From the NCBI GenBank assembly GCA_031272365.1, contig JAISTX010000013.1, positions 256 to 64,255 on the forward strand: a DNA stretch of 64,000 nucleotides. Reading direction: 5' to 3'. Shown here piece after piece: positions 15,823 through 40,965 of this stretch. A model generated the notes under the pieces. It was not told where the DNA came from. It saw only the letters and a list, made by a program, of their open reading frames with translations, and made no database searches. Positions within the stretch are counted from its first letter, which is position 1. Every line of letters starts with the position of its first letter. Origin of the DNA: Eubacteriales Family XIII. Incertae Sedis bacterium (lineage in GTDB: Bacteria; Bacillota; Clostridia; Peptostreptococcales; Anaerovoracaceae). A program made the position numbers and the translations under genes.

Positions 15823-15851
15823 ATTATAGTCGACAAGCCCCTGCCTGTCAA
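15823..15851 (-). promoter_or_regulatory. consensus sigma-A promoter for rpmH (TTGACA-17-TATAAT)
   Basis: Minus strand reads TTGACAggcaggggcttgtcgacTATAAT. The -35 overlaps the recF stop codon (15848-15850). Confidence 0.7.
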
Positions 15852-16960
15852 AAGGTATTTTTTTCCACGAAACCGCCGCGGACCCTGATCACACGCGCGC
15901 CCCCCAGGGCCGCCGGCGCCTCCGCCGCCGTCACGAAGACCTGGTTGCCCGAGAAGGCCGAGAGGATCCGCCCCTGCCGCCCCGCGTCGAGCTCGCTCAT
16001 CACGTCGTCGAGCAGGAGGATCGCGTCCTCCCCCGTCTCCTGCTTGATGAGGGCCCGCTCCGCGAGCCGGAGCGCGAGCGCCGCCGTGCGCTGCTGCCCC
16101 TGCGAGCCGTAGACGCGCAGGTCCGACCCGTTCAGTGACAGCGCGAGGTCGTCCCGGTGCGGCCCCGCCTCGGTGGCGCCGAGGAAGAGGTCCCGCTCCC
16201 GCCCCCGCCGCAAGGCCCCCCGCATGGCCTCCTCGTACTCGCCCGCCGTGACGCCCGAAGGATCCCGTTCGCCGCCCAGCGCGCTCGGCCGGTACGCCGC
16301 CGAGAGCGCCTCGCGCCCGTCCGAAATCATCGACACGGATTCCGCCGCCGCCCGCGACAGCGCCTCCGCGTAGGCCGCCCGCTCGGCCATCACGGCTGCG
16401 CCCGCCGCCGCCAGCTGCTCGTCGTAGACGTCGAGCAGCCCCGGGTCCGCCCCTTCTTTTTTCAAGAGCGCGTTGCGGTTTTTCAAAACCCCCTTGTATT
16501 TTTTCAACTTGTGGTAGTAGACGGGCCGCAGGAGGATGATCTCGCGGTCGAGGAACCGCCGCCGCGCGTCCGGCCCCCCCTTCACGATCGACAGGTCCTC
16601 CGGCGAGAACACGATCGTGTACGCCCCCCCGAGCAAATCAAAAACGGAACCCTTCTCCGCCCCGTTCACAAAAAACTCCCTCTGCCCGCCGGCCCCCCGC
16701 CACACGATCTCCACCGTGAAGGGCGAGCCCCTCTTCTCGAAATGCCCCTTCACCGACAGGGCCTCCTCCCCCGACCGGACCATCTCCTGCTCCCGCCGCG
16801 TCCGGAAGGACTTCGCCATGGACAGGAAACCGACCGCCTCGATCAGGTTCGTCTTCCCCTGCCCGTTCTCCCCCGTGACGACGTTGAGGCGCTCGTCGAA
16901 GGAGACCTCCTCCTCTTTGTAGTTGCGGAAATTCCGCAGGAGGATTTTCTCTATCTTCAT
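15848..16960 (-). CDS. recF: DNA replication and repair protein RecF
   Basis: Walker A GENGQGKTNLIEA, signature SQGQQRTAALAL, LLLDDVMSELD. Confidence 0.92.
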   Translation of the reverse strand: MKIEKILLRNFRNYKEEEVSFDERLNVVTGENGQGKTNLIEAVGFLSMAKSFRTRREQEMVRSGEEALSVKGHFEKRGSPFTVEIVWRGAGGQREFFVNGAEKGSVFDLLGGAYTIVFSPEDLSIVKGGPDARRRFLDREIILLRPVYYHKLKKYKGVLKNRNALLKKEGADPGLLDVYDEQLAAAGAAVMAERAAYAEALSRAAAESVSMISDGREALSAAYRPSALGGERDPSGVTAGEYEEAMRGALRRGRERDLFLGATEAGPHRDDLALSLNGSDLRVYGSQGQQRTAALALRLAERALIKQETGEDAILLLDDVMSELDAGRQGRILSAFSGNQVFVTAAEAPAALGGARVIRVRGGFVEKNTF

Positions 16961-16967
16961 CCTTTTT

Positions 16968-18089
16968 TCAGACGTTCACCGTGGACAGCCGCACCGGCAG
17001 GATCAGGTAGGTGAACCCCTCCCCCTCGACCGGCCTGACCACGCAGGGGCTGATGCTCGTGCCGAACTCCATCACGACCTTCTCGTCCCCCGCCGCCCGC
17101 AGCGCCTCCTTCAGGAACCTCGCGTCGAACCCGATCTCCAGGTCCTCCCCCTCCTTCTCGATCGCGACCGTCTCCTTCCCGTGCCCCACGTCCGCGCGCG
17201 AGGACACCACCAGCGACCCCTCGCCGATCGAGAACCGCACGAAAGAGTTTTTCCCGTCGCTCTTGTACACCTCCGCAAGCTCCACCGCGTTCAGGATCTC
17301 CTCCCTGCGGCACACGAACCGGACCGCGTACTCCTTCGGCAGCACCTCCCGGTACTTGATGTACTCCCCCGCGAGCAGGTTCATCCGCACCGTCGTGTCC
17401 TCCGTCACGAGGACCGCCTTGTTCTGCCCCACCTCGAGGCACACCTCCTCTTTGCAGGACTCTGCCAGGATCTTTCCGGCCTCCCGCATCATCCGGGCCG
17501 GGATGACCGCCTTCAGCGACTCCCCGCGCAGCGCCTCGCGGAAATCCCGCCGGATCGCCACCCTATACCCGTCCAGGGCCACCATCGCCAGGTCCCCCGC
17601 CTCCACCTCGAACAGGGCCCCCGTGATCACCCCCCTCGACTCGTCGGCGCTGGCCGCGAAGCAGGTGCCCTCGATCATATCCTTCAAAGCTTCCCTTTCA
17701 ATAATAATTTTCTTGCCCTCTTCCATGCCTTCGATGCGCGGAAACTCGCTTTCCTCTATTCCCTGTATCTTGTTGTCCGTCGTCTCCGTCGTGATCGTGA
17801 GCACGTTCCTCTCGTCCGTGGCGAGCACCACGTCCTCCTCCGGCAGCTTCCTGATCAAATCGGAGAAGACGCGCGCCTCCACGACGACCGAACCCCCCTC
17901 GTTCACGATCGCCCCCATCCGCGTCGTGATGGATATCTGTATGTCCGTCGCGGACAGGTTGATGTTCAGGTCCCCGTCCGTCTTGATGAGTATCCCCTTG
18001 ATGATCCCGAGCGTGGAAACAGTGGACACGGCCCTCGAGACGATCCCGAGCGCTTTGATCAAATTTGTTTTCTTGCAAATTGCTTTCAC
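16968..18089 (-). CDS. dnaN: DNA polymerase III beta sliding clamp (GTG start)
   Basis: About 373 aa with a three-domain clamp pattern. Lies downstream of dnaA. Confidence 0.9.
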   Translation of the reverse strand: MKAICKKTNLIKALGIVSRAVSTVSTLGIIKGILIKTDGDLNINLSATDIQISITTRMGAIVNEGGSVVVEARVFSDLIRKLPEEDVVLATDERNVLTITTETTDNKIQGIEESEFPRIEGMEEGKKIIIEREALKDMIEGTCFAASADESRGVITGALFEVEAGDLAMVALDGYRVAIRRDFREALRGESLKAVIPARMMREAGKILAESCKEEVCLEVGQNKAVLVTEDTTVRMNLLAGEYIKYREVLPKEYAVRFVCRREEILNAVELAEVYKSDGKNSFVRFSIGEGSLVVSSRADVGHGKETVAIEKEGEDLEIGFDARFLKEALRAAGDEKVVMEFGTSISPCVVRPVEGEGFTYLILPVRLSTVNV

Positions 18090-18106
18090 GTGCTTTTCCT
18101 TTCTTC

Positions 18107-18203
18107 AATCATTTTATTTTTATTATTTTGCCTATGGATATGTGGATAACTCCTATGGACAAGTGAAAAAAGCCTTTTCCCACCTCTTTTTTTCTATGGA
18201 TAA
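18107..18203. other. oriC part (dnaA-dnaN spacer): AT-rich tract plus DnaA boxes
   Basis: AT-rich caatcattttatttttattatttt (18107-18130). TGTGGATAA at 18141-18149 is a perfect box in reverse orientation. TATGGATAA at 18195-18203 has 1 mismatch. Weaker boxes at 18133 and 18154. Confidence 0.65.
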
Positions 18204-18238
18204 CTCTTTGGATATCCTGTCATATCTATGGGAAAAAA

Positions 18239-19606
18239 TCAATACTCCTCTTCAATCTTGTCCTTGATCTCTTGGATGATGCTCCCGAGTTGTTCGTTCG
18301 TCTTGAGCTCCTTGCGCACTTTCTCGTAGGCGTGGTGGACGGTGGAGTAGTCCTTCCCGAACATCTTCGCTATTTTTGGGAAGGAGTTTTGCGTCATCTC
18401 GTAGCTCAGGAACATCGCGATCTGCCGCGGCATCGCGAGCGAGCGCGTGCGCTCCTGCGAGTCGATCTGGGCGACCGTGATCCCGAAATGGGCGGCGACC
18501 ACCTTCTTGATGTCCTTCGGGGACACGTCCCCCGTGCCGTTCACGGAGACGACGTCCTTGAGGATCTGCTTCGCCAGGTTCCTGGAGAAGGAGGATCCGG
18601 AGATCTTCGCGAAGGCTACCACGCGGTTGAAGGCGCTCTCCAGCTCGCGCACGTTGGTCTTCACGATCTCCGCGATGAAGGAGATGACCTCGTTGAGGCC
18701 CTCGTCCTCCGGGATGCCGTCGAGCTTCGCCTTGTTCAGGAGGATGGCCACCTTGATCTCGTAGGAAGGCGGCTGCAGGTCCACGAGGAGCCCGCTGCCG
18801 AGGCGGCTCTGCAGCCGCTCGTCGATGCCGAGGATGTCCTTCGGCGGGCGGTCGCTCGTGAAGACCATCTGCTTGCCCATGTTGTAGAGCGTGTTGTACG
18901 TGTTGAAGACCTCCTCTACGGTCTTGTCCTTCTCGCTGATGAACTGTATGTCGTCGATCAGGAGCACGTCGATGCCCCTGTACTTCGCCTTGAACTCGTT
19001 CATCTTCTTTTGCAGGTTCGCGTTGACGAACTCCTCCGTGAACGTCTCAGAGGAGACGTACAGCACCTTCTTGCTGGGGAAGTTTTCCATCACGAAGATG
19101 CCGATCGCGTTCATCAGGTGCGTCTTGCCGAGGCCGGACCCCCCGTAGATGAAGAGGGGGCTGTAGGCCTTGCCCGGGGCCTCGGCCACCGCCTTCGCGG
19201 CCATCGCCGCGAAGCGGCTGTTGTCGCCGATGATGAAATTGTCGAACGTGTAGCGGGGGTTGAAGATGTTCTCCCCGTCCAGGGAGGTGGGGCCGGGATC
19301 CTTCCGGGGCTCCGGGGCGCGCGCCGTGCGGTCCTGCGGGAGCAGGAAGGAGAGCGTGACCGGCGCGGCGAAGGCCTCGCTCGCCGCCTCGGCGATCGTG
19401 CCCGCGTACTTCATCTCCAGCTGGGCCTGCTTGAAATCGTTGTCCACAGAAAAATAGAGCCGACCAGCCGCCTTGTCGTAGCGGATCGGCTCCAAATCTG
19501 CAATCCAAGCAAGAAAATCCCTCTTTTCAACGGATTTTTCAAGCGTCGCCAGCGTTCTTTCCCACAATTCCGAAGTTGTTTCCATTCTTTTCCTATCCGG
19601 TTCCAC
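18239..19606 (-). CDS. dnaA: chromosomal replication initiator protein DnaA
   Basis: Walker A GGSGLGKTHLMNAIG, LLIDDIQF, and C-terminal DNA-binding domain (PRQIAMFLSYEMT...DYSTVHHAYEKV). Confidence 0.95.
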   Translation of the reverse strand: MEPDRKRMETTSELWERTLATLEKSVEKRDFLAWIADLEPIRYDKAAGRLYFSVDNDFKQAQLEMKYAGTIAEAASEAFAAPVTLSFLLPQDRTARAPEPRKDPGPTSLDGENIFNPRYTFDNFIIGDNSRFAAMAAKAVAEAPGKAYSPLFIYGGSGLGKTHLMNAIGIFVMENFPSKKVLYVSSETFTEEFVNANLQKKMNEFKAKYRGIDVLLIDDIQFISEKDKTVEEVFNTYNTLYNMGKQMVFTSDRPPKDILGIDERLQSRLGSGLLVDLQPPSYEIKVAILLNKAKLDGIPEDEGLNEVISFIAEIVKTNVRELESAFNRVVAFAKISGSSFSRNLAKQILKDVVSVNGTGDVSPKDIKKVVAAHFGITVAQIDSQERTRSLAMPRQIAMFLSYEMTQNSFPKIAKMFGKDYSTVHHAYEKVRKELKTNEQLGSIIQEIKDKIEEEY

Positions 19607-19677
19607 CCTGCCTCAACAAACGAGCATATCTAAGATAACACGGGGGGCGCGGTGGGCGCAATACGAAAAAGGGCAAG

Positions 19678-19796
19678 TTATCCATAGAAATCCACATATT
19701 ATCCACAGGTTTTTTGTGGATAAAAAACCCCCGGGGCTCCGGGGCGCGCGCCGCTTATCCCAACGCACCCGCGTTCTGTGGAAAAAATATTCCACA
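19678..19796. other. oriC part (dnaA-gyrB spacer): DnaA-box cluster
   Basis: TTATCCATA 19678, AAATCCACA 19688, TTATCCACA 19699 (perfect), TGTGGATAA 19715 (perfect, reverse), TTATCCCAA 19755, TGTGGAAAA 19777, TATTCCACA 19788. Confidence 0.75.
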
Positions 19797-19863
19797 ATCG
19801 CGCCGGGGAAACGGGGGGCGCGAACATAGTGTTACTTTTACGTGACAGCGCGGCTCCGGGCTG

Positions 19864-19936
19864 TAAAAAAAACACTTTATATGGTAGAATATATTGTTAA
19901 AAATTCTACCTGTATATAATATGTAGGAAATTTTCA
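19864..19936. other. AT-rich tract: candidate DNA-unwinding element and/or gyrB promoter region
   Basis: taaaaaaaacactttatatggtagaatatattgttaaaaattctacctgtatataatatgtaggaaatttt. Contains the inverted repeat ggtagaat...attctacc and a TATAAT at 19915-19920. Confidence 0.5.
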
Positions 19937-19956
19937 GGAAGAGGGGTAAATGCCAC

Positions 19957-21900
19957 ATGGCGGCGGACGTAGAACAACAACGGTATAACGCGGAACAAAT
20001 TCAGGTGCTGGAGGGGCTCGAGCCGGTCCGGACGAGGCCCGGCATGTACATCGGGAGCACGGGGCCCAGGGGGCTCCACCACCTCGTCTACGAGGTCGTG
20101 GACAACAGCGTCGACGAGGCGCTGGCGGGGTTCTGCAAGCACATCAACGTGACGATCCAGGCGGACAACTCGATCGTCGTCGAGGACGACGGGCGCGGCA
20201 TGCCCGTGGACAAGCACCCGAAGCTGGGGATCCCGGCGGTCGAGGTCATCCACACGGTGCTGCACGCGGGCGGCAAATTCGGCGGCGGCGGCTACAAGGT
20301 GTCGGGCGGCCTGCACGGCGTCGGCGCCTCCGTCGTCAACGCCCTCTCCGAGGAGATGGAGGTCCAGATCCAGCGGAACGGCAAGATCTACCGCCAGACG
20401 TACTCGCGCGGCAAGACGACGAGCAAGCTCGAGGTCATCGGCGAGAGCAAGAAGACGGGCTCGCGCACGATGTTCCGCCCCGACCCGGAGATCTTCGACG
20501 AGCTCGAGTACGACTACGGCACGCTGGAGCACCGCCTGCGCGAGATGGCCTTCCTCAACAAGGGCGTGCGCATCACGCTCGCCGACGAGCGCGAGGGCAA
20601 GAAAAAGAAGGAAGTCTTCTATTATGAAGGGGGCATCCTCGAGTTCGTGCGGCACCAAAACGCAAACAAGGAGCCGATCCACCCGGACATCATCTACTTC
20701 GAGGCGTCCCGCAAGTCCTCTGAGGGCGGCGGCGACGCGGACGTGGAGATCGCGATGCAGTACACGAAGCGCTTCAACGAGACGGTCTTCACGTACGCCA
20801 ACAACATCAACACGATCGAGGGCGGCATGCACCTGTCGGGCTTCCGCAGCTCGCTGACGCGCGTGTTCAACGAGTACGCGCGCCGGCAGGGCATCCTGAA
20901 GGAGAAGGACGAGAGCTTCACGGGCGAGGACGTGCGCGAGGGGCTGACGGCGATCATCTCCGTGAAGCTCACGACGCCGCAGTTCGAGGGGCAGACGAAG
21001 GCGAAGCTCGGCAACAGCGACATCCGCGGCTTCGTGGAGAGCACGACCAACGACCGGCTCATGGCCTTCCTCGAGGAGAACCCCTCGCAGGCCAAGACGA
21101 TCCTGGACAAGATCTACGGCACGTACAAGGTGCGGCTGAAGACGCAGAAGGTGCGCGAGACGGAGCGCAAGAGCCTCATGTCGGGCGGGAGCCTGCCCGG
21201 CAAGCTCGCGGACTGCTCGGAGAAGGACCCCGCGCTCTCGGAGATCTTCCTCGTCGAGGGCGACTCGGCGGGCGGCAGCGCGAAGCTCGGGCGCGACCGC
21301 AGGCGCCAGGCCATCCTGCCGCTGCGCGGCAAGATCCTCAACGTCGAGAAGGCAAACCTCGACCGCGTGCTCTCCTCGGACGAGATCAAGAACATGATCA
21401 CGGCCTTCGGCTGCGGCATCGACGAAAACTTCGACCTCGAGAAGCTGCGTTATCACAAAATAATAATAATGACGGACGCCGACGTGGACGGCGCGCACAT
21501 CCGCACGCTGCTGCTGACGTTCTTCTTCCGGCACATGACGGAGCTGATCCAAAACGGCAACGTCTACATCGCGCAGCCGCCGCTCTACCAGGTCAAGCGC
21601 GGCAAGGACGTTCATTATACATACTCGGAGAAGGAGCAGGAGAAGCTCATGCGCCGGCTCGGCGAGGAGGCGCCCAACGCGAAGTGGGACATCCAAAGGT
21701 ACAAGGGCCTGGGCGAGATGGACGCGTCGCAGCTGTGGGAGACGACGATGGACTGGCAGGGGCGCACGCTGATCCAGGTGACGCTCGACGACTACAGCCT
21801 CGCGGACGAGACGTTCGTGATGCTGATGGGGGACCGCGTGGAGCCGCGGCGCCGATTCATCGAGGAAAACGCCCGGTACGTGAAAAACCTTGACATATAG
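19957..21900 (+). CDS. gyrB: DNA gyrase subunit B
   Basis: [53 protein letters not shown]. Confidence 0.95.
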
Positions 21901-21914
21901 AAACAGGAGCAGCC

Positions 21915-24362
21915 ATGAGTGAGCAAATCGACGAACTGAAACTGATACAGACCGAAATCCACGACGAGATGAAGACGGCGTACATCGACTACGCGATGAG
22001 CGTCATCGTCGCGCGCGCCCTGCCCGACGTCCGCGACGGGCTGAAGCCCGTGCACCGGCGCATCCTCTACGGGATGAGCGAGCTCGGCGTCACGCCCGAC
22101 AAGCCGCACAAAAAATCCGCGCGCATCGTCGGCGACGTCATGGGCAAATACCACCCGCACGGCGACAGCTCGATCTACGACGCGATGGTGCGGCTGGCGC
22201 AGGACTTCTCCATCCGCTACCCGCTCGTCGACGGCCACGGCAATTTCGGCAACATCGACGGCGACAGCGCCGCGGCCATGCGCTACACGGAGGCGCGCAT
22301 GAGCCCGCTCGCGCTGCAGATGCTGCGCGACATCGAGAAGGACACGGTCGACTTCATGCCCAACTTCGACGGCGAGGAGAAGGAGCCCATCGTCCTGCCC
22401 GCCCGCTTCCCGAACCTGCTCGTGAACGGCAGCAACGGCATCGCGGTCGGCATGGCGACGTCCATCCCGCCGCACAACCTCGTGGAGGTCATCGACGCGA
22501 CGACGCACCTGATCGACCACCCGGGGGCGACGGACGACGAGCTGTGCAAATTCGTCAAGGGGCCGGACTTCCCGACGGGCGCGATCATCCTCGGCAAAAA
22601 GGGCGCGAAGGAGGCCTACAAGACGGGGCGCGGCAGCGTGCTCGTGCGCGCGACGCACACGTTCGAGGAGACGAAAAAGGGGCGGACGCAGATCATCTTC
22701 ACGTCCATCCCCTACCAGATCAACAAGGGCAACCTGCTCGAGAAGATGGGCGAGCTCGCGCGCGAGCAGAAGATCGAGGGGATCGCCGAGGTGCGCGACG
22801 AGTCGAGCATGGAAGGCATCCGCATCGTCGTCGAGCTGAAAAAAGACGCCAACCCGCAGATCACGCTGAACAGGCTCTTCAAGCAGACGCAGCTGCAGGC
22901 CAGTTATTCGATGATCATGCTCGCGCTGGTCGACGGCGAGCCGAAGGTGCTCAGCCTCTCGCAGATCCTGCACCACTACCTCGTGCACCAGAAGGAGGTC
23001 CTGACGCGCCGGACGCAGTTCGAGCTGAAGAAGGCGGAGGCGCGCGCGCACATCCTGGAGGGGCTCATCATCGCGCTCGACAACATCGACGAGGTCATCA
23101 AGACGATCCGCGAGAGCTACGACGACGCGAAGGAGCGGCTCATGGACCGGTTCCGCCTCTCCGACCTGCAGGCGCAGGCGATCCTCGAGATGCAGCTGCG
23201 CCGGCTGCAGGGGCTGGAGAAGGAGAAGATCGAGAAGGAGTACGCGGAGCTGCGCAAGATGATCGCCTACTACAAGGAGCTGCTCGCCGACGAGGCGAAG
23301 CTGATGGGCGTCGTGAAGGCGGAGCTCGAGGAGATCAAGGACAAATGGGGCGACGCGCGCAAGACGAAGATCGAGGCGGCCGCGGCGGAGATCGAGGAGG
23401 AGGACCTCATCGAGGAGGGCCGCGTCGCGGTCACGCTGACGCACCTCGGCTACATCAAGCGCGTGGACGCGGACGAGTACAAGCTGCAGCGGCGCGGCGG
23501 CAAGGGCATCAAGGCGCTGACGACGAGGGACAACGATTTCGTGCGCGACCTCATCATCACGTCCACGCACGATTATTTGATGTTCTTTACAAATACGGGC
23601 AAGGTGCATAAAATAAAAGCATACGAGATACCGGAGGCGCAGCGCACCGCGAAGGGCACGCCCGCGATCAACTTCCTCAATCTCATGCAGCGGGAGCGCA
23701 TCACGGCGCTCATGCCGATCCGGGAGTTCCCGGAGGACCGCTACCTGATCTGCGTGACGAAGAAGGGGACGATCAAGAAGACGCCGCTGTCGCAGTACGA
23801 CACCAACCGGAAGAACGGGCTGATCGCGATCGCGCTGAAGGACGGCGACGAGATGATCGGCATCAAGCAGAGCAGCGGCAGCGACCTGGTGATCCTCGTC
23901 ACGAAGTTCGGCAAGAGCATCTGCTTCAAGGAGGACGACGTGCGCAGCATGGGCAGGACCGCCGGCGGCGTGCGCGGGATCAACCTCGAGGCGGGCGACG
24001 AAGTCGTGGCCATGGACCTCGTGCAGCCGGAGGAGAAGCTCCTCGTCGTGACCCAGTTCGGGCTCGGCAAGAGGACGCCGGTCTCCGACTACAACATACA
24101 GAAGCGCGGCGGCATGGGGCTGCTGACGTACGACAAGAAGAAGATCAAGAAGACGGGCGAGCTGGTCGGGGCCTGCGTGGTGAACGACGACGACGAGATC
24201 ATGCTCATCAACTCGGACGGCATCCTGATCCGCATCGAGGCGCGGGAGGTGAAAGAGCTCAGCCGCGTGACCCAGGGGGTCAAGATCATGAAGGTGGGCG
24301 AAGACGCGCAGATCATCGCGATCGCGAAGGTCGCGCGGGAAGAAGACGAGGAGGACAGCTAA
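21915..24362 (+). CDS. gyrA: DNA gyrase subunit A
   Basis: [22 protein letters not shown] (catalytic Tyr), and C-terminal beta-pinwheel repeats. Confidence 0.95.
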
Positions 24363-28524: not shown

Positions 28525-28897
28525 AGGCCCCATCCTCTCCGCTCGGGTTTGGCCCGGGGCGACGGGGCCGTCATATGCACGAAACGGGAGGTGTCGGCGA
28601 TAGACCGAAGCACGGCGGTCGTGCCGGCCTGGATGGTTTGACACGGTAGCTGCCCCAAGCCGGCGCGCAAGCCGCGCCAAGGGGCGGTTTTGTCTGCCTC
28701 CGGCCCAAATTTTCAATTATTGAGATCTATTCCACCAGAAATATCCAGCACACCCATTTCCTAATACCACAATAACTGAAATAATGCCCCGCCCTCCGCC
28801 ACTCTTTTTTTGTATATTTGTAATATGCGGCCGGGATTTTTGGTTATAATTAGTACACGATACCACTCGGTAGTTGTTTGTATGGGAGAGAACAATC

Positions 28898-30613
28898 ATG
28901 AATATGAAAAAGATGTGGGTATTTGTAGCGGTGTTTGTTTTGGCGGCAGCGCTGTTTGCGGGTTGCGACAAGAAGGAGGACGGCGGCAGCGCGGGCGTGC
29001 CCCTGGGTGACGGGGGCGCCTCGGCGCGGGCGGAAGGAGACGGCGCGGCGGGCGGCGACGCGTTCGGGAGCCTCGACGCGCAGGCCGACCCGGTCACCGT
29101 CACGCGCACGGCGCTCGGCATGGAGGTGAAGCTGACGGCGCACCCGATCCAGAGCGACGGGACGCAGGCGGCACTCGTGGTCGACTACGAGCTGACCTCG
29201 GATCTCCCCGAGGGCGTGAGGAGCCTCGCGCTGTACCACTTCCTGTCCGTGGACGAAGTGACGGAATACGGCCCGGCGAGCATCCGGTTGTTCGACCTGC
29301 CGTCGCAGACGGCGTGGATCGAGCTCCCGCAGGAAAGCAACCAGTACCAGGACGCGGGGGCGTTCCGCGTCATGCCCGACAAGGACGGCAAGCCGGGCTA
29401 TACGGCGAGCAGCGTCCTGTCCCCCGACAGGCCGTTTGCTTCCAGCGTGACGCTGTACGCGGCGCCGGAGGGGCTGGACACGGTCGATGTCTTCCTGCCG
29501 GTGTTCGGCGTGATCCCGGACGTGCCCATCGTCAACGCGGACGGCGGCCTCGGCCCGTTCACGGAACTCACGGGCGCGCCCGCGGCCGGATCCGAGGCGG
29601 CCTGCACCGTGACGCTGCGGCGGTTCCTCGCGGACTACGAGGGCGAGATGTTCGTCGTGGACGAGGGCGAGGAGGCGACGCTGACGATCACGTCCGACGT
29701 GCTGTTCGCCACCGACGAGTACGAGCTGACGGCGGAGGCGCAGGAAGTCATCGCGCGCGCGGTCGAGCAGATCAAAGCCGAGTACGACAGCGGCACCGTC
29801 AAGGTCGTCGGCCACACGGACGACGTCGCCGACGACGCCTACAACCAGACGCTCTCGGAGAAGCGCGCCGAGTCGGTGCGCGCCGAGCTTGCGCCCCTGC
29901 TCGGCAGCGGCTACACGCTGACGGCCGAGGGCCGCGGCGAGACGGAGCCCCTCGCGGAGGGCACGTCCGCCGAAGCGCGCGCGGTCAACCGCCGCGTGGA
30001 CATCGTGATGTCCGGCGTGAAGCACGAGGACAAGGCGGAGGCCTTCCAGGCGGGCGACCTGCTCCCGGCAGACTACCCGACGGGCCAGGGCGGCGCGGAC
30101 TGGCTGGAATACCGCCAGGCGGGCGAGGACACGAACGTCGGCACAACGGTCTTCAAGGTCAGGGTCGAAAACCTCGTCCGCACGGAGAACGGCCTCGTCG
30201 GCTACCTCAGGATCGGCCTCGCGGAGGACGGCACCTTACCTGGGCTGACCAAGGCGCTGTACATGGTATACGCCGACCGCGCGACAAGCCGCGACCTCGC
30301 CGCGCGCGGCTACGTGTTGATGCAGAACATGATCGGCACCTTCCCCGTCGCGCTGCTCACGGCGGAGGGCCGGCTCTACGGCTACGACTACGTCGCCACC
30401 GACGCCGGCACGGGCGAAAATTATGTGAACATGGTCTGCAACAGCGGCACCGGCTTCGGGCCGACGTACGGCGATCTGCACGAGGGCGTGCTCGTCCCGA
30501 TGATCTGGCCCGACCCCGGCACGGACACGGTCACGATCGACGTAGACGGCGTCTTCCGCATCGAAAACGTGCCCGTCTCGGACGACGCGTCCCTGCTGGC
30601 CGCAGCCTATTGA
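28898..30613 (+). CDS. lipoprotein with a central OmpA/MotB-type peptidoglycan-binding domain
   Basis: Signal peptide with lipobox LFAGC. VKVVGHTDDVADDAYNQTLSEKRAESV...NRRVDIVM. The flanking domains were not recognised. Confidence 0.8.
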   Translation: MNMKKMWVFVAVFVLAAALFAGCDKKEDGGSAGVPLGDGGASARAEGDGAAGGDAFGSLDAQADPVTVTRTALGMEVKLTAHPIQSDGTQAALVVDYELTSDLPEGVRSLALYHFLSVDEVTEYGPASIRLFDLPSQTAWIELPQESNQYQDAGAFRVMPDKDGKPGYTASSVLSPDRPFASSVTLYAAPEGLDTVDVFLPVFGVIPDVPIVNADGGLGPFTELTGAPAAGSEAACTVTLRRFLADYEGEMFVVDEGEEATLTITSDVLFATDEYELTAEAQEVIARAVEQIKAEYDSGTVKVVGHTDDVADDAYNQTLSEKRAESVRAELAPLLGSGYTLTAEGRGETEPLAEGTSAEARAVNRRVDIVMSGVKHEDKAEAFQAGDLLPADYPTGQGGADWLEYRQAGEDTNVGTTVFKVRVENLVRTENGLVGYLRIGLAEDGTLPGLTKALYMVYADRATSRDLAARGYVLMQNMIGTFPVALLTAEGRLYGYDYVATDAGTGENYVNMVCNSGTGFGPTYGDLHEGVLVPMIWPDPGTDTVTIDVDGVFRIENVPVSDDASLLAAAY

Positions 30614-30642
30614 CCCGCATTTGCAACGGATGACGGAAATGC

Positions 30643-30672
30643 AAAGCCGATTGGGAAACCAGTCGGCTTTTC
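30643..30672 (+). terminator. intrinsic terminator after the lipoprotein gene (12-bp stem, GAAA tetraloop, T-run)
   Basis: aaagccgattgg-gaaa-ccagtcggcttttct. Confidence 0.6.
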
Positions 30673-30681
30673 TGCTATAAT
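30673..30681 (+). promoter_or_regulatory. extended -10 promoter (TGcTATAAT) 11 nt upstream of the gatC ATG
   Basis: tcTGcTATAATaattatttgttATG. There is no Shine-Dalgarno between the -10 and the start codon. Confidence 0.45.
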
Positions 30682-30692
30682 AATTATTTGTT

Positions 30693-30983
30693 ATGAAAAT
30701 TGACGACCGACTAATTGAATACCTTGCCGACCTTTCGCGGCTCGAATTGTCCGGGGAAGAGAAGGAAGCGCGGAAGAAAGACCTGGAGGACATCCTCGCC
30801 TATATGGAGAAGCTCGGGGAGCTCGACACGCAGGGGCTGCCGGAGATGACGCACCCCTTCGAGGCGCAGAACCGCTTCCGCGAGGATGAGGTGGCAAACC
30901 GGGATCGCAGGGAGGAGCTGCTGGGGGGGGCGCCGGACCGGTCCGGCCCCTATTTCCGCGTCCCCCGCGCGGTGGAGGAATGA
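30693..30983 (+). CDS. gatC: Asp-tRNA(Asn)/Glu-tRNA(Gln) amidotransferase subunit C
   Basis: IEYLADLSRLELSGEEKE...DLEDILAYMEKL. Confidence 0.9.
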   Translation: MKIDDRLIEYLADLSRLELSGEEKEARKKDLEDILAYMEKLGELDTQGLPEMTHPFEAQNRFREDEVANRDRREELLGGAPDRSGPYFRVPRAVEE

Positions 30984-30990
30984 GGCACCC

Positions 30991-32469
30991 ATGGATCTGG
31001 ACCTGAAGAAATCCACAGCGTTGGAAATAGCGAAAGCGATCCAGGAGCGGAAGCTCAGCAGCCCGGAGGTGACGCGCGCCTACCTCGACGCGGCGAAAGC
31101 GGATTTTGAAAAAGCCCCCGGGGATACAACGAAAATAAACGCCTACGCCTCCCTTGGCGAGGAGGCGGCGATGGCGCAGGCGCAGGCCGCGCAGAAACGC
31201 ATCGACGCCGGCGAGGCGCCCTCGCCGCTGGCGGGCGTGCCCGTCGCGCTCAAGGACATCATCTGCACGACGGAGGGCACGACGACGGCCTCCTCGAAAA
31301 TCCTCACGGGCTTCCGCGCGCCGTATGACGCGGGCGTGGTCGACCGGATGCGGGCGGCGGGGCTCGTGTTCCTCGGCAAGACGAATATGGACGAGTTCGC
31401 GATGGGCAGCTCGACGGAGACGTCGCACCTCGGCATCACGCGCAACCCGTGGGACACCGCGCGCGTGCCGGGCGGCAGCTCGGGCGGCAGCGCTGCGGCG
31501 GTCGCGGCGGGCCTGGCGCCCTTCGCGCTGGGCTCTGATACGGGCGGCTCGATCCGCCAGCCCTGCGCCCTCACAAACCTGACGGGCGTGAAGCCGACCT
31601 ACGGCAGCGTGTCGCGCTACGGCCTCATGGCCTACGGCAGCTCGCTCGACCAGATCGGCCCCATGGCGAAGGACGCGGCGGACGCGGCGGCGCTGCTCGC
31701 CGTCATCAGCGGCAAGGACGAGCGGGACAGCACGTCCGTCATGGAAAAGCCGTTCGACTTCTCGGATATCAATATGAAGGAAATCAAAATCGGCATCCCG
31801 CGCAACTACTTCGGGATGCCCGGCCTCGCGGACGACGTGAAGGCGTGCGTGCTCGGGGCGGCGGAGACCTTCCGCGCGCTCGGGGCCAAGGCCATCGACA
31901 TCGACCTGCCGCTCATCGACTACGCGGTACCGACCTACCTCATCATCGCCTGCGCGGAAGCGAGCTCGAACCTGTCGCGGTACGACGGCGTGAAATACGG
32001 CTACCGCAGCCCGGACGCCGCAGACATCCACGACGTCTACTACAAGACGCGCAGCGAGGGCTTCGGCACGGAGGTGAAGCGGCGCATCATCCTCGGCTCC
32101 TTCGTGCTGTCAAGCGGATACTTTGACGCCTACTACAAGAAGGCGCTTCAGGTGCGCGGCCTCATCCGCGCCGCCTTTGACAAGGCGCTCGAAGGCTGCG
32201 ACATGATCCTGTCGCCCGCGACGCCGACGGTCGCCTTCGAGATCGGCGGCAAGATCCAGGATCCAATCGCCATGTACCTCGCGGACATCTACACGACGTC
32301 CGTCAACCTGACGGGGCTGCCCGGCCTGGCCGCGCCCTGCGGGTTCGGCGAGGGCGGCCTGCCTGTCGGCATGCAGCTCATCGGGCGCGCGTGGGAGGAC
32401 GGCAGGCTCCTGTCCGCGGTCAAAGCCTACCAGGGCGCGACGGACTTCCACAAGAGGTGGCCGGCATGA
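30991..32469 (+). CDS. gatA: amidotransferase subunit A (amidase signature)
   Basis: GKTNMDEFAMGSSTE...GGSSGGSAAAVA...GSDTGGSIRQP. Confidence 0.93.
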   Translation: MDLDLKKSTALEIAKAIQERKLSSPEVTRAYLDAAKADFEKAPGDTTKINAYASLGEEAAMAQAQAAQKRIDAGEAPSPLAGVPVALKDIICTTEGTTTASSKILTGFRAPYDAGVVDRMRAAGLVFLGKTNMDEFAMGSSTETSHLGITRNPWDTARVPGGSSGGSAAAVAAGLAPFALGSDTGGSIRQPCALTNLTGVKPTYGSVSRYGLMAYGSSLDQIGPMAKDAADAAALLAVISGKDERDSTSVMEKPFDFSDINMKEIKIGIPRNYFGMPGLADDVKACVLGAAETFRALGAKAIDIDLPLIDYAVPTYLIIACAEASSNLSRYDGVKYGYRSPDAADIHDVYYKTRSEGFGTEVKRRIILGSFVLSSGYFDAYYKKALQVRGLIRAAFDKALEGCDMILSPATPTVAFEIGGKIQDPIAMYLADIYTTSVNLTGLPGLAAPCGFGEGGLPVGMQLIGRAWEDGRLLSAVKAYQGATDFHKRWPA

Positions 32470-35400
32470 GGAGGGGCTGGGAGATCGTCATCGGGCTGGA
32501 GGTCCACGTCGAGCTGTCGACGAAGACGAAGATCTTCTGCGGGTGCTCGACGGCATTCGGCGGCGAGCCGAACAGCCACACCTGCCCCGTCTGCCTCGGG
32601 ATGCCGGGCTCGCTGCCCGTGCTCAACAAGGCCGTGGTGGAGAAGGCCGTCGCGGCCGGCGTCGCGACGCACTGCGAAATACTGTCAACGAATTTGTTTG
32701 ACAGAAAAAATTATTTCTATCCAGACCTGCCGAAGGCCTACCAGATCTCGCAGCTGTACAGGCCGATTTGCCGGGACGGCTGGGTCGAGATCGACGCGGG
32801 CGCGGGGCCGAAGAAGGTGCGCATCCACGAGATCCACATGGAGGAGGACGCGGGCAAGCTCGTGCACGAAGGCGGCGTGAGCCTCGTGGACTACAACCGC
32901 TGCGGCGTGCCGCTCATCGAGATCGTGAGCGAGCCGGACATGCGCAGCGCGCAGGAGGTGGAGGCCTACCTCGCGGCGCTGAAGGAGGCGCTGGTCTACC
33001 TGGGCGTGTCCGACTGCAAGATGCAGGAGGGCTCGATGCGCGCGGACGTGAACCTGTCCGTGCGGGAGGCGGGCGCGGAGGCGTACGGCACGCGCACGGA
33101 GACGAAGAACATGAACTCGGTCAAGGCGATCATGCGGGCGATCGAGTGGGAAGCCGACCGGCAGATCGCGCTGCTCGAGAAGGGGCAGCAGGTCGTGCAG
33201 GAGACGCGGCGCTGGGACGACGCGGCGGGCGCCGGCTACGCGATGCGCAGCAAGGAGAACGCGCAGGACTACCGTTATTTCCCCGACCCCGACCTCGTGC
33301 CGCTGCACGTGGACGCGGCGTGGGTGGAGGAGATCGCCGCCCGCTTCCCGGAGCTTGCGCCGGAGAAGCGCGCGCGGTATGCGTCCGAGTACGGTCTCGC
33401 GCCGAAGACGGCGGCGGTGCTCACGCAGGAAAAGCGCGTCGCGGAGACCTTTGAAGCCATCACAGCCGCCCTTGGCGGCTCGCGTGCTGCGGCCGTCGAG
33501 GCCGCGAACGCGGTGACGGGCGAGCTGCTCCGGCTCCTCAAGGAGAGCGGGCAGGAGGCGGACGCGCTGTCCGTCGACCCCGGGAAGGTCGCGGGCGTGC
33601 TGCGCCTCGTGCTGGACCGGCGGATCAACCGCAACGCGGGCAAGGCCGCGATCGAGGCGGTGTACAAGGAGGATGTAGACCCCGAAGCGTACGTGCGGGA
33701 GCACGGGCTCCTCATCGAGGAGGACGCGGCGGGGCTGGCAGATGCGGTCGCGGGGGTGCTGGCCGCCAACGCGAAGTCCGTGGCGGACTACAAGGGCGGC
33801 AAGGAGAAGGCGTTCGGATTTTTGGTCGGGCAGACGATGCGGGCGCTCGGCGGGAGCGCGGACCCGGCCGCCGTGAACGAGGAACTGAAGAAGCAGCTCG
33901 GGGTTGCGGATGCTGCTGGCGGCGGCGCGGCCGTCGCGGCCGGTGCGGCTGGTGCAGCCGGCGCGGCGCCGGCTTCCCGGGAAGCTGGTGTGGAGGCAAA
34001 GGGCAAGCCCGCGGATGCGCGGGCGCAGGACGGCGGCGGGCGCGCGCCGCGCGCGGAAACGGCGGTTTCGCCTGCCGCGGAAACGGCTTTTGCGGGACCT
34101 GCGGAGGCGGAGGCGGCCATGGCTGCCCCGGTGGCCTTCTCGGGCCGCTACCGCGAGATGACCTGCGGGGAGCTGCGGGAGGCGCATGTCGGTATGGCCG
34201 TGAAGCTCGCCGGCTGGGTGCAGACGATCCGCGACCACGGCGGCATCATCTTCGTCGACCTGAGGGATATGTACGGCGTGACGCAGGTCGTCGTGACCGA
34301 GGAGCAGGCGGCCCTCATCGGCAAGGAGTATTCCATCTCGGTCACGGGCAGCGTGAAGCAGCGCGACGAGGAGACGTTCAACCCGCGCATCGCGACGGGC
34401 ACGGTCGAGCTGCGGGCGCAGGAGGTCGAGGTGCTCGGGCCCTGCCGGAGCGGCCTGCCGTTTGAGATTGACGAGTCGAGGGATACGCGCGAGGAGTTGC
34501 GGCTGAAATACCGCTACCTCGACTTGCGCAACCCGGCGCTGAAGAAAAACCTCCTGCTGCGCACCGACGTCATCCGGAAGCTGCGCGCCGAGATGGAGGC
34601 GCTGGGCTTCCTCGAGATCCAGACGCCGATCCTCGCAAACTCCTCCCCCGAGGGCGCGCGCGACTACCTCGTGCCGAGCCGCAAACACAAGGGGATGTTC
34701 TACGCGCTGCCGCAGGCGCCGCAGCAGTTCAAGCAGCTGCTCATGGTCGCCGGCTTCGACCGCTACTACCAGATCGCGCCGTGCTTCCGCGACGAGGACG
34801 CGCGCGCCGACCGGTCGCCGGGCGAGTTTTACCAGCTCGACTTCGAGATGGCCTACGCGACGCAGGAGGACGTCTTCGCCGTGTGCGAGCGCGTCCTTTT
34901 CGCGACGTTCGCGGCGTTCGCCGGCAGCAGGGCGATCTCCCCCCCGCCCTTCCGGCGCATCCCCTTCGCAGAGGCGATGCTCCGGTACGGGACGGACAAG
35001 CCGGATCTGCGCAACCCGCTCGTCATCTTCGACCTGTCAAGCTATTTCCTTGACACAGACTTCGCGCCCTTCCGGGGCAAGACCGTGCGGGCGATCCGCG
35101 TGCCCGGCGCGGCGGCGCAGCCCCGGTCGTTCTTCCGCGAGATGGAAAAGTTTGCGACGGGCGAGGTCGGCATGAAGGGGCTCGGCTACGTCACGGTGCA
35201 GGACGACCTGTCCTACAAGGGGCCGATCGACAAATTCCTGTCCGGCGCGAAGAAGGCGGAGCTGCTGCGCATCGCGGAGGGCGAGGGCCAGGCGCTCGCG
35301 CCCGGCGACGTGCTGTACTTCATCGCCGATGAGGAGGAGCTGGCCGCGAAGTTTGCGGGGCAGATCCGCACGGAGGCCGCGCGCCGGCTTGGCCTGATCG

Positions 35401-35897
35401 AGGAAGGCCGGTTTGACTTCTGCTTCATCACGGACTTCCCGATGTACGAATACAACGAGGAGCAGGGCAAGATCGACTTCACGCACAACCCGTTCTCCAT
35501 GCCGCAGGGCGAGATGGAGGCGCTGACGGCGAAGGATCCCCTGGACATCCTCGCGTGGCAGTACGACGTCGTCTGCAACGGGGTCGAGCTGTCGTCGGGC
35601 GCCGTCCGGAATCACAGGCCGGACGTCATGGTCAAGGCCTTCGAGATCGCCGGTTATTCCGAAAAAGATGTCGAGGAGAAATTCGGCGCCCTGTACAGCG
35701 CCTTCTCCTACGGGGCCCCGCCGCACGCCGGCATGGCGCCCGGCGTCGACCGCATGGTCATGCTGCTCGCGGGCGAGGAAAACATCCGCGAGACCATCGC
35801 CTTCCCGCTCAACGCGAGCGCGCAGAACCTGATGCTGGGCGCGCCGTCCGAGGTGACCGAGCAGCAGCTGCGCGAAGTGCACATCAAAATCCGCTGA
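32466..35897 (+). CDS. gatB-aspS: fusion protein: complete GatB + about 80-aa Ala/Gly/Pro/Glu linker + complete bacterial-type aspartate--tRNA ligase
   Basis: A single frame with no stop. GatB part: [24 protein letters not shown], YqeY-like tail ...NEELKKQLG. AspRS part: CGELR..[62 protein letters not shown], GAD-type insertion, [19 protein letters not shown]. Confidence 0.85.
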   Translation: [1143 protein letters not shown]

Positions 35898-37468: not shown

Positions 37469-37601
37469 GCCGCCTGTAATGGCGGATTTCAGGTTCGTTT
37501 ATGTTTTGTGATATAGTATAGTATCGAATCAATCGGTTGTTTTTTGCGGATGGGGTTTTCCCTGACGCTTGAAAAAGGAGTGGCAAACAGGAGAAACCCC
37601 T

Positions 37602-38947
37602 ATGGATGTGGACGCGCGCAAGAAAAGGCGGAAAAAAATCCTTCTCATCATCATCATTGTCGTGGTGGCTGTGCTCGCCATCTTCTACTTTGCTTTCATC
37701 CGGCCGGCCGTCAAGGCCGCGCAGGAGCAGGCCAATACCCCGCTGGCGACCACGGTGCTGCAGAAGACGGACCTCGAGCAGACGGTCGCGGCGACGGGCA
37801 CCTTCGAGGGCGCGGTCTCCCGCTCGGTCGTGAGCACGGATTCCTACAAGGTCACGCAGATCTTCGTCAGCGAGGGCGAGAAGGTCGGCGAGGGGCAGAC
37901 GCTCGCGACGCTCGACACGACGGACATCGACGAGGACATCGCCGCCGTCCTGCAGGACATCGCGAAGGCGCAAAACGAAGACGCCATCGCGCGGGAGCGC
38001 GCGCAGGGCCACCTCGACAAGACGGTGCTCGACTCCCTCGAGGGGAAGGCGGACTATGACCAGGTCATCACGGCGCAGCGCGCCCTCGACGACGCAAACC
38101 GGAAGGACAGCTCGGAGGCGCTCCGGGATCAGCTGAAGGAGCTCGAGAAGCAGAAGGATGACTGCACGATCACGGCGCCGATCACAGGCACCGTCACGGC
38201 GGTCAACACGGAGGTCGGGCTCCCCGCCAACGGGCTGGGCAGCGGCAGCACGGGCAGCAACGCGGCGACGAGCATGTTCGTCGTGCAGGACCTCTCGCAG
38301 CTGCAGGTCCCCGCGAGCGTGGCCGAGTACGACGCCGTCCTGCTCTCGCCGGGCCTGACGGCGCGCATCACCTCCGACACCTTCGACGGGCAGAGCTGGA
38401 CGGGCACGGTCAAGGCCATCTCGCCCGTCGCCACGGACGAGAACAACAATTTCACGGTCACCGTGACGCTCGAGGGCGACGCCCTCGGGCTGACGAGCGG
38501 CATGAGCGCGAAAATCGAGATCATCACGGAATCGAAGAAAGGCATCTACGCCGTGCCCTACGACGCGGTCGTGGAAAAAGAAGACGGCTCGAAGGTCGTC
38601 TACGCATTGCCGGAAGGCTCCTCGCCGTTCGGCGGCATGGGCGGCGGCCAAAAGGCCAAGAGCGGCTTCTCGATCTCCATCGGGAAGTCGGGCGACTCCA
38701 GCGGCACGGTTTCGGACGACGGGCGCGTCGAGATCCCCGTGACCACGGGCATGGAGACCGACTACCTCGTCGAGATCTCCGGCGAAGGGCTCACAGACGG
38801 CCTTCAGATCCTGACCGACCCGCTGGGCCTGAGCGTCAGCGGCAGCAGCGACATGATGGGCGGGATGATGATCGGCGGCCCCGTGGGCGGCGGCGGTGCC
38901 CCCGGTGGCGGCGGCGGCGTGCGTGTGGAACGCAGTGTGAATGTCGG

Positions 38948-38951
<4 letters not shown>
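37602..38951 (+). CDS. efflux periplasmic adaptor (HlyD/MacA family) with an N-terminal anchor and a Gly/Met-rich tail
   Basis: TM anchor, coiled-coil region, and beta-barrel segments. Coupled to the downstream ABC pair by an ATGA overlap. Confidence 0.75.
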
Positions 38952-39681
<730 letters not shown>

Positions 39682-39685
<4 letters not shown>

Positions 39686-40965
39686 ATTTCAGGGACAACA
39701 TAGGCCAGGCGTTCACCAGCCTGAAAGCCAACAAAATGCGCGCGCTTTTGACGATGCTCGGCATCATCATCGGCATCTCGGCCGTGATCGCGATCATGAC
39801 GATGGGCAATTCGATGACCGTGGCCATGACGGAGCAGTTCCAGGAGCTCGGCGTCAACAACGTCACCGTCTACGTGCAGCAAAAAGAGGACGAGTTCGCT
39901 GGCGGGCGCTTCGGCGGCGGCTACGAGACAACGGACAAGGATCTCCTCACCGACGAGATGCTCGCGGACCTGCGCGAGCAGTACCCGGACGACATCGACG
40001 CCTTCAGCCTCGCGGTCGGGGTCGGCAACGGCCAGACCACGCAGGGCAGCAAATACGCAAACCTCACCCTGCTGGGCGTGAACGCGGAATACAAGACGAC
40101 GAACAACATCGAAATCACGCGCGGCCGCTTCGTCGACGACGGCGACAGCGAGAGCCGGAAAAAGGTGGTCGTCGTCTCCGACAAGCTCGTGAGCAACATC
40201 TTCGGCGAAGAGGATCCGATCGGCAAGTCGATCCTCGTCGAGCTGCAGGGCTACGTGGGCACCTATGTGATCATCGGCGTCTACGAGGCGGAGGACTCAG
40301 CGATGGGGCCGTCGACCTCGTCCGAAGCCGACGTCGTCACCGAGGCCTATATCCCGCTGAAGACCGCGCAGCTCATCATGAAAGTGAATGGCTATGAACA
40401 AGCCACGGTCATGACCGCCGCCGGCGTCAACGCGACGGAGTTTACGGACAAGATCACGGGGGTGCTGAACAAATATTATTCAAGAAATGAACATTTTGAG
40501 ATCGCCGCCTTCAGCATGGAATCCATGGTGGAGAGCATCACCTCCATGCTCAATATGATGACGCTCGTCATCGCGGCCATCGCGGCCATCGCGCTGCTCG
40601 TCGGCGGCATCGGCGTCATGAACATCATGCTCGTGTCCATCACGGAGCGCACGCGCGAGATCGGCGTGCGGAAGGCGCTCGGCGCGACGAACGGCGAGAT
40701 CCGCGCGCAGTTCATCGTGGAAGCGATCGTCATCTGCATGATCGGCGGCATCATCGGCATTATTGTTGGAATCCTGCTCGGCATTGTCGGCACGGCCGTG
40801 ATCGGCAACTACTCCGGGGGCGACATGGAATTCAAAGCCTCGGTCTCGGTGCCGTCCATCCTGCTCGCCACGGGCTTCTCGATGGCCATCGGCATCTTCT
40901 TCGGCTACTACCCCGCCAACAAAGCCGCGAAGCTCGACCCCATCGACGCACTCCGCTTCGAGTAA
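39682..40965 (+). CDS. ABC transporter permease (MacB/FtsX family)
   Basis: N-terminal TM helix, a large extracytoplasmic domain, and a C-terminal FtsX module (ERTREIGVRKALGA). Confidence 0.9.

Follow-up and report, generated by a model that had tools for sequence, protein, structure and literature searches.

The window analysed here is a 64,000-nucleotide stretch of forward-strand DNA (positions 256 to 64,255 of contig JAISTX010000013.1, assembly GCA_031272365.1) from a Family XIII bacterium of the Clostridia. It contains a short gat operon in which gatC and gatA lie directly upstream of a gene whose single reading frame spans both gatB and aspS, the latter encoding aspartyl-tRNA synthetase (AspRS); the usual partners of GatB are therefore co-encoded with the fused protein. 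The operon and its features are as follows, with lengths in amino acids (aa).

30693 to 30983, + strand: gatC, first gene of the operon, 96 aa (TIGR00135, 86 bits against a cutoff of 47)
30991 to 32469, + strand: gatA, 492 aa (TIGR00132, 553 bits against a cutoff of 481)
32466 to 35897, + strand: gatB~aspS fusion gene, 1143 codons and a stop
32466 to 33899, + strand: GatB module, aa 1-478, with the GatB_N catalytic domain and a YqeY-like tail domain
33900 to 34148, + strand: Ala/Gly-rich linker, aa 479-561 (83 aa), predicted to be disordered
34149 to 35897, + strand: bacterial-type AspRS module, aa 562-1143 (582 aa), class IIb with a GAD insertion
34236 to 34238, + strand: codon of His591, in the R(D/N)HGG motif of the anticodon-binding domain (alignment)
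34103 to 34121, + strand: possible internal ribosome-binding site GGAGGcGGAGG, a 5-nt spacer and the ATG at 34119, codon 552 (sequence scan)
34158 to 35897, + strand: NCBI 'aspartate--tRNA ligase' MDR1796094.1, 579 aa, from an internal ATG at 34158 (exact-sequence look-up)

The open reading frame (ORF) listing of the window places the fusion gene within an uninterrupted ORF at 32391 to 35897 (+ strand), and conceptual translation from the ATG at 32466 meets no internal stop, running through 1143 residues to its terminal stop. This ATG, which is preceded by AAGAGGTG, shares the tetranucleotide ATGA (32466-32469, context 'ccggcATGAgg') with the TGA stop of gatA; a GGAGGA motif precedes the start ATG of gatA itself. 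An earlier note, made from the letters of this DNA, had described one 1143-codon frame overlapping gatA at an ATGA, and the ORF listing, the translation and the overlap sequence all bear this out. Its placement of gatC and gatA upstream of the fusion agrees with the TIGR00135 and TIGR00132 matches, and the frame is open across the linker, with no in-frame stop between gatB and aspS, as the note had also stated.

Both halves of the predicted protein are matched essentially from end to end by models of the respective enzymes. In the first half, Pfam locates GatB_N at residues 7-288 and GatB_Yqey at 341-478 (profile positions 11-148 of 148), and NCBIfam scores are 611 bits for the GatB equivalog NF004012 (cutoff 338, profile positions 4-479 of 481) and 527 bits for TIGR00133 (cutoff 315). 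The module terminates in ...NEELKKQLG at aa 478; together with the full-length NF004012 match, this sustains the earlier claim of a complete GatB of about 478 residues. The second half contains tRNA_anti-codon (OB-fold, 579-657), tRNA-synt_2 (676-1116) and a GAD insertion (871-962), scores 752 bits against the bacterial AspRS equivalog NF001750 (cutoff 443, profile positions 3-586 of 590), and is 41% identical to Escherichia coli AspRS end to end. The complete bacterial-type AspRS of about 580 residues that had been proposed, with OB-fold, class II core and GAD insertion, is recovered by Pfam and NF001750 as a module of 582 aa. Judged from its sequence, the product is predicted to be one polypeptide of ~125 kDa in which both enzymes are complete and their catalytic motifs intact; the protein components would thus be supplied by one operon, two of them in one chain, with the 1:1 GatB:AspRS stoichiometry set by the covalent link.

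Taken by itself, the window is weak evidence for a fusion, since its linker DNA (249 nt, 33900-34148; 79% GC) lacks stops in each of the six frames, and the chance of a stop-free 83-codon linker there is ~0.1-0.4; the significance lies in the comparison with relatives. A search of 5.8 billion proteins, clustered at 90% identity, returned at least 120 clusters with all five Pfam domains (53-71% identity overall and 53-69% among the 120 listed, 100% coverage, 1089-1214 aa), mainly from Clostridiales Family XIII/Anaerovoracaceae, and the five-domain architecture that the earlier note had suggested searching for is accordingly present in related genomes. Across these homologues, at least 120 in number, the linker varies from 42 to 130 aa and is hypervariable in sequence, yet it is always in frame; in relatives of 38-51% GC, a linker would be open by chance with a probability of 0.0016-0.05 at each locus. 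Because so many divergent homologues stay in frame, those in low-GC genomes included, the comparison shows that the fusion is real and kept by selection, and we regard it as nearly certain that the fused protein is a real and conserved one.

Conservation extends to the catalytic machinery of both enzymes. In 78 aligned fusions, mean column identity is 59% across the two enzyme halves; G10, L11, E12, H14, E16, D79, R80, K81, H124, E126, E127, D128 and E152 of GatB are invariant, as are the GatB cradle-domain motifs, including HxEEDAGK and EIVSEPD, and class II motifs 2 and 3 (the latter GMAPGVDR) of AspRS. A survey of 80 loci, one genome per species, yielded four true fusions, namely two Family XIII metagenome-assembled genomes (MAGs; L001 and L002) and loci L003 and L004. 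These four, and two additional loci from a 2.97-Mb genome (L081) and from an Aminipila sp. (L082), carry gatC-gatA-gatB~aspS with the fusion as one ORF. The earlier note had pointed to close relatives as the place where separate gatB and aspS genes might be seen; in the loci most similar to the window, which are these six, the two are fused throughout.

Just upstream of gatC in L081 (5352-7442) and L082 (1-8051) lies a gene for a type III glutamine synthetase; glutamate-synthase genes are also upstream in the Aminipila locus, and a class I/II aminotransferase gene follows the fusion in L081. These neighbours may reflect a link to amide-donor and aspartate supply.

The linkers share no family-wide sequence, and their composition tracks that of the host (Ala/Gly here, Lys/Glu/Asn in AT-rich relatives). 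An AlphaFold model built from a 78-sequence alignment shows both modules folded, with a predicted local distance difference test (pLDDT) score mostly of 80-95 in the GatB module; residues 481-544 score 25-31 and have no secondary structure. The predicted template modelling (pTM) score of the whole chain is 0.51, with no fixed geometry between the modules. In this model the fusion is predicted to be two folded modules on a flexible string, without a fixed interface. Sub-lineages retain short linker motifs, such as 'PxVPAWKK', 'LTAAEKALRRA' and 'EHEKYEQEKAELNSVFASYGKYA...EPISVFQSQA', and Lys/Glu/Ala-rich linkers, which are common, recall the N-terminal helices with which eukaryotic class IIb synthetases bind tRNA.

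Unfused relatives of the two halves are plentiful in the same survey. Some 50 of the 80 loci, which belong to Oscillospiraceae, Ruminococcaceae and Lachnospiraceae, have aspS ahead of gat genes, mostly in the full order aspS-gatC-gatA-gatB, and encode an AspRS 60-66% identical to the fused one; the earlier remark that aspS adjoins gatCAB in some genomes holds for these. One locus, from a 'Ruminiclostridium sp.' MAG (L026, 8700-8830), has the opposite gene order at this point: the TAA stop of gatB is followed by 21 nt that include AAAGGG and a ribosome-binding site, after which aspS begins at an ATG without a change of frame. This layout is a plausible pre-fusion state, one point mutation (loss of the stop) from a fusion.

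When 1.84 billion representatives were scanned exhaustively with HMMER, further fusions came to light, and in all of those found GatB is N-terminal and AspRS C-terminal. In an additional, very abundant family from gut bacteria, represented by P0180 (955 aa; L083-L085, 8001-10868), GatB is joined to an archaeal-type 'aspartate--tRNA(Asn) ligase' that lacks GAD (NF003483, 526 bits over a cutoff of 353; TIGR00458, 398 over 368), again behind gatC-gatA. Its clusters, at least 120 in number, come from Ruminococcus, Hominimerdicola and Oscillospiraceae; some hold over 1000 members, and two bear the IMG label 'amidotransferase B subunit/nondiscriminating aspartyl-tRNA synthetase'. Another fusion, P0195 (1074 aa; L087, 2138-6586; L088, 2046-6494), occurs in a host of 26-27% GC. 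In 14 alignment columns, in-frame UGA codons of P0195 fall opposite invariant Gly, and none falls opposite Trp, a sign that the host reads UGA as Gly (genetic code 25, as in Gracilibacteria/Absconditabacteria). The gene preceding P0195 encodes an asparaginase-domain (GatD-like) protein in place of gatA, which suggests that a GatD-type glutaminase partners this GatB~AspRS chain. A single divergent example of GatB joined to AspRS (P0168, 1112 aa) was also found. Because the AspRS types differ, bacterial with GAD in one case and archaeal without it in the other, fusion took place at least twice, and probably three times or more.

Other composite chains encountered include a HisRS~AspRS fusion (P0202, 1029 aa; 14 members, one of them in a 3.5-Mb genome), a GatB with a C-terminal Trbp111-like tRNA_bind domain (P0245, 701 aa) and an AspRS with a C-terminal YbaK-like tRNA_edit domain (P0211/P0194, 744-748 aa).

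The likely tRNA specificity of the AspRS module can be approached through two positions of the anticodon-binding domain. His591 is invariant in 121 of 121 fusions. The same RDHGG motif occurs in the Pseudomonas aeruginosa enzyme (4WJ3_M) and in mycobacterial enzymes (5W25, 4O2D), deposited as Asp/Asn ligases; the discriminating AspRS of E. coli has RDLGS, with Leu30 at the position of His591. All 78 clostridial AspRS with a readable motif have this His as well, and for ~50 of them the locus contains gat genes too. At the second position the window protein has Glu636 and its family E, D or S; the residue is Gly in P. aeruginosa and mycobacteria, and Lys in E. coli. We take the two positions to be those of P. 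aeruginosa His31 and Gly82/83, respectively, both presumably tied to tRNA(Asn) recognition; a 2006 J Bacteriol study by Bernard et al. is said to have found that both affect it. The closest PDB matches of the AspRS half are the non-discriminating (ND) enzymes of P. aeruginosa and mycobacteria, and the genetic linkage of aspS with gatCAB takes the form here of a fusion. These features suggest that the AspRS module is non-discriminating and may charge tRNA(Asn) as well as tRNA(Asp).

The best reading of these observations, and our leading hypothesis, is that the fusion probably works as a tethered 1:1 Asn-transamidosome. Indirect support comes from His591, from the aspS-gatCAB neighbourhoods of the nearest AspRS, and from the independent fusion of GatB to an 'aspartate--tRNA(Asn) ligase'. 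AspRS is a dimer, and the tail domain of GatB reads the D-loop and the 1-72 pair of the tRNA. To go by the two families, GatC and GatA, translationally coupled upstream, would bind the GatB module, and dimerisation through AspRS would give a holoenzyme (GatC.GatA.GatB~AspRS)2, in which each active site of the synthetase would have one amidotransferase. Chain counts for the bacterial-type complex (four GatB in 4WJ3; five AspRS over 4WJ3 and 4WJ4) likewise point to one GatCAB per AspRS protomer. The AspRS module would aspartylate both tRNA(Asn) and tRNA(Asp); the 3' end of Asp-tRNA(Asn) would then pass to the kinase/transamidase site of the tethered GatB, where ammonia from the GatA glutaminase would finish Asn-tRNA(Asn).

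A rationale for the tether is offered by what is known of complexes of this type. AspRS meets the acceptor stem on the major-groove side, opposite GatCAB, so that one tRNA holds both (PMC2330236, PMC9499178). For the GAD-containing transamidosome of bacterial type, Fischer et al. (2012) reported a dynamic complex of lower stability than that of Thermus, with an ND-AspRS that lets go of Asp-tRNA(Asn) slowly and thereby gives GatCAB time to catch it (PMC3367201). In such a dynamic, less stable assembly, a tether could replace this kinetic race by a permanently high local concentration of GatCAB, which, with no need of rigid geometry, would allow the mischarged intermediate to be caught before release. 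A linker of at least 42 residues could bridge the tens of angstroms expected between the GatB tail at the tRNA elbow and the AspRS OB-fold at the anticodon, a distance that we infer rather than take from coordinates.

Several points weigh against the tethered transamidosome or temper it. Glu636 represents neither the non-discriminating nor the discriminating state and is uninformative rather than contrary. At the Rfam gathering threshold, neither the window nor nine related loci (seven of which carry the fusion) showed an Asn-specific T-box or other leader RNA 5' of the operon, the other matches being unrelated riboswitches and tRNAs; the gap upstream of gatC is only ~80 nt. The window and 10 loci contain no tRNA(Asn) gene, sought for its U1-A72 pair, and the 64-kb window contains no class IIb paralogue and no asnS, asnA/B, glnS or second aspS (asnA and asnB being sought among the annotated ORFs). 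AsnRS, LysRS, AsnA, a second AspRS and a second GatB were likewise looked for, and found neither there nor in related loci totalling ~1.5 Mb. The good Shine-Dalgarno (SD) sequence and the ATG at codon 552 leave a minor possibility that free AspRS is made here as well. Were the fusion the sole AspRS, it would also have to let Asp-tRNA(Asp) go unaltered; if its GatCAB also serves tRNA(Gln), tethering could be costly. Finally, a flexible tether does not prove channelling.

Four other explanations of the locus were weighed against the tethered transamidosome. It is conceivable in principle that a stop or frameshift was missed, and that gatB and aspS are separate genes joined by an assembly or sequencing artefact: the window comes from a MAG, a single indel in its GC-rich linker, open in six frames, would make no nearby stop, and NCBI annotates only the 579-aa AspRS. 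The same uninterrupted architecture recurs, however, in more than 120 independent clusters from varied samples, assemblers and GC contents, including contigs of 2.2-3.0 Mb, and the linkers vary in length yet are all in frame. These comparative data effectively refute an artefact, to which we assign a negligible probability. Rather improbable, in our judgement, is internal initiation at the ATG at 34119, by which a free AspRS for housekeeping tRNA(Asp) charging would be made alongside the tethered one. An SD-like GGAGG does stand 5 nt before this in-frame ATG, 10 codons ahead of the AspRS domain, and a start at codon 552 would yield a free AspRS of 592 aa; but the motif is simply how the codons for Ala-Glu-Ala-Glu-Ala-Ala-Met look in a high-GC genome, and the differing starts of NCBI records (562, 579, 583 and 585 aa) resemble annotation choices. 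Nor is the start conserved in relatives: L002, L003 and L004 have no ATG, GTG or TTG in the 40 codons before the AspRS domain, and the fusion alignment contains no conserved Met ahead of the module. A conserved internal start codon was rejected on these grounds, and the same absence argues that the fused chain is the conserved product.

The polypeptide might instead be cut after translation, giving equimolar free GatB and AspRS, since a long, exposed, disordered linker is open to proteases. We consider this very unlikely: the linkers contain no conserved cleavage motif and share no family-wide sequence, and translational coupling within an operon already gives co-expression. An unlikely but more substantial alternative holds that the fusion is a near-neutral accident of operon structure, in which the gatB stop was lost and both halves work as before, the AspRS as an ordinary housekeeping enzyme, with neither kinetic coupling nor channelling. 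The unstructured, sequence-unconstrained linker, the unfused same-frame arrangement gatB-stop-aspS in L026 and the lack of a regulatory RNA tying the operon to Asn would all suit such an accident. It fits less well with the persistence of the fusion down to ~53% identity across the whole family without reversion, or with at least three independent origins, always GatB-first and once with an AspRS type dedicated to charging tRNA(Asn); moreover, linkers in both families never fall below ~40 residues, consistent with a spacing requirement.

A bolder form of the tethered transamidosome may be put forward tentatively, as possible but doubtful. The fusion would here be both the sole AspRS and the sole GatB of its host, acting as an obligate, cis-acting two-enzyme 'AsnRS'; the choice between releasing Asp-tRNA, on tRNA(Asp), and amidating it, on tRNA(Asn), would be made inside a single particle according to tRNA identity, with the tethered GatB tail reading U1-A72 and the D-loop, and escape of Asp-tRNA(Asn) would be what drives convergent tethering. 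If this proposal is true, same-polarity fusions in at least three unrelated lineages, in one of which a GatD-like glutaminase takes the place of GatA, would mean that the escape of this mischarged tRNA is selected against strongly enough to bring about covalent tethering.

GatB~AspRS is a new covalent form of a well-known system. Its nearest equivalents, the transamidosomes of P. aeruginosa (PDB 4WJ3) and Helicobacter pylori, likewise combine a GAD-containing bacterial AspRS with GatC, GatA and GatB, and the P. aeruginosa type shares with it the R(D)HGG His motif, one GatCAB per AspRS protomer and the presumed order of reactions. These complexes consist of separate proteins joined mainly through the tRNA and are dynamic (PMC3367201); in the window protein, known from its sequence, the GatB C-terminus is instead covalently joined to the AspRS N-terminus by the 83-aa linker, and no chain among the PDB matches spans both halves. 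The Thermus thermophilus transamidosome (PDB 3KFU) uses the same pathway and GatCAB with an archaeal-type ND-AspRS, making it the natural counterpart of the Ruminococcus-type fusion. It is non-covalent, its AspRS lacks the GAD domain present in the window enzyme, and chain counts (two GatB in 3KFU; six AspRS over 1N9W and 3KFU) suggest two AspRS protomers per GatCAB.

Covalent links between related components occur elsewhere in other arrangements. The curated model NF009460 (PRK12820) describes a natural AspRS-GatC fusion, also joining AspRS to a GatCAB subunit, in which GatC lies at the AspRS C-terminus, whereas in the window protein GatB lies at its N-terminus; membership of this family was rejected for the window protein, which scores 452 bits against a cutoff of 1379, over the AspRS part only (profile positions 24-614 of 723), and has no GatC domain. 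Deinococcus radiodurans GlnRS (PMC1865053; NF011291) resembles the fusion in carrying a GatB-derived YqeY tail domain on a synthetase, there at the C-terminus. It has the tail only, without an amidotransferase catalytic domain, and serves the direct pathway, whereas the window protein contains the whole of GatB. The clostridial aspS-gatCAB and gatCAB-aspS operons comprise the same genes and the closest AspRS (60-66% identity, all RDHGG), but a stop, a ribosome-binding site and a start separate the genes, and aspS usually comes first.

Full-text literature searches for GatB-AspRS or AspRS-GatC fusions found no relevant paper and none on a GatB-AspRS fusion, in keeping with the earlier note's impression that none had been characterised; a single paper on any fusion came up, on a GatC-GatA fusion that arose experimentally in Mycobacterium smegmatis. 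In the sources searched, the fusion is uncharacterised, and in databases it is present and mis-annotated. IMG calls the exact 1143-aa product (P0584) and names it just 'aspartyl-tRNA synthetase'. By exact-sequence look-up, NCBI has only the 579-aa MDR1796094.1; GatC is identical to MDR1796092.1, and the accession numbering leaves one record between the two. That record is taken to be GatA, so that the GatB half (32466-34157) appears to lack an NCBI protein record. In other MAGs, AspRS products of 562, 583 and 585 aa begin at differing internal positions, some of them apparently at non-canonical start codons. Truncated AspRS annotation of this kind in NCBI records would account for an abundant fusion architecture having passed unremarked, and automated metabolic reconstructions would mistakenly report the amidotransferase, GatB, to be missing from abundant gut Clostridia.

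Transamidosomes are the textbook case of keeping a deliberately mischarged tRNA from translation; the extent to which intermediates are channelled varies by species and, for the dynamic complex of bacterial type, is a matter of debate. Fusions between proteins that interact are well known, and GatB~AspRS is a recurrent, abundant and experimentally tractable instance that bears on the question of channelling. The tethered protein gives structural studies of the GAD-containing complex a stable particle to work with; comparison of fused and linker-split forms could measure the contribution of proximity to fidelity; and convergent fusions are evolutionary evidence that proximity is selected.

The gat operon lies in the replication-origin region, ~11 kb from dnaA. 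The - strand carries dnaA (18239-19606), dnaN, recF, jag, mnmE and parB, and the + strand gyrB and gyrA, the GyrB being 100% identical to MDR1796083.1 from a 'Clostridiales Family XIII bacterium' MAG; the divergent origin layout is unusual (15848-24362), dnaA/dnaN/recF facing gyrB-gyrA across a gap of ~350 nt (19607-19956). Immediately 5' of gatC, a hairpin followed by a T-run (AAGCCGATTGGGAAACCAGTCGGCTTTTCT; 30640-30695) is probably the terminator of a gene for an OmpA-like protein. The sequence TGCTATAAT lies ~12 nt ahead of the gatC ATG, which has no Shine-Dalgarno sequence, and together these suggest that the gat operon transcript is leaderless or has a very short leader. The operon is flanked by the gene for this OmpA-like peptidoglycan-binding protein (28874-30613) and by a MacA/MacB-type efflux set (37569-40965) consisting of a membrane-fusion adaptor, an ABC ATPase and an FtsX-like permease. 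Genes of both kinds are commoner in diderm bacteria and are found here in a Family XIII (Clostridia) genome of 64.5% GC.

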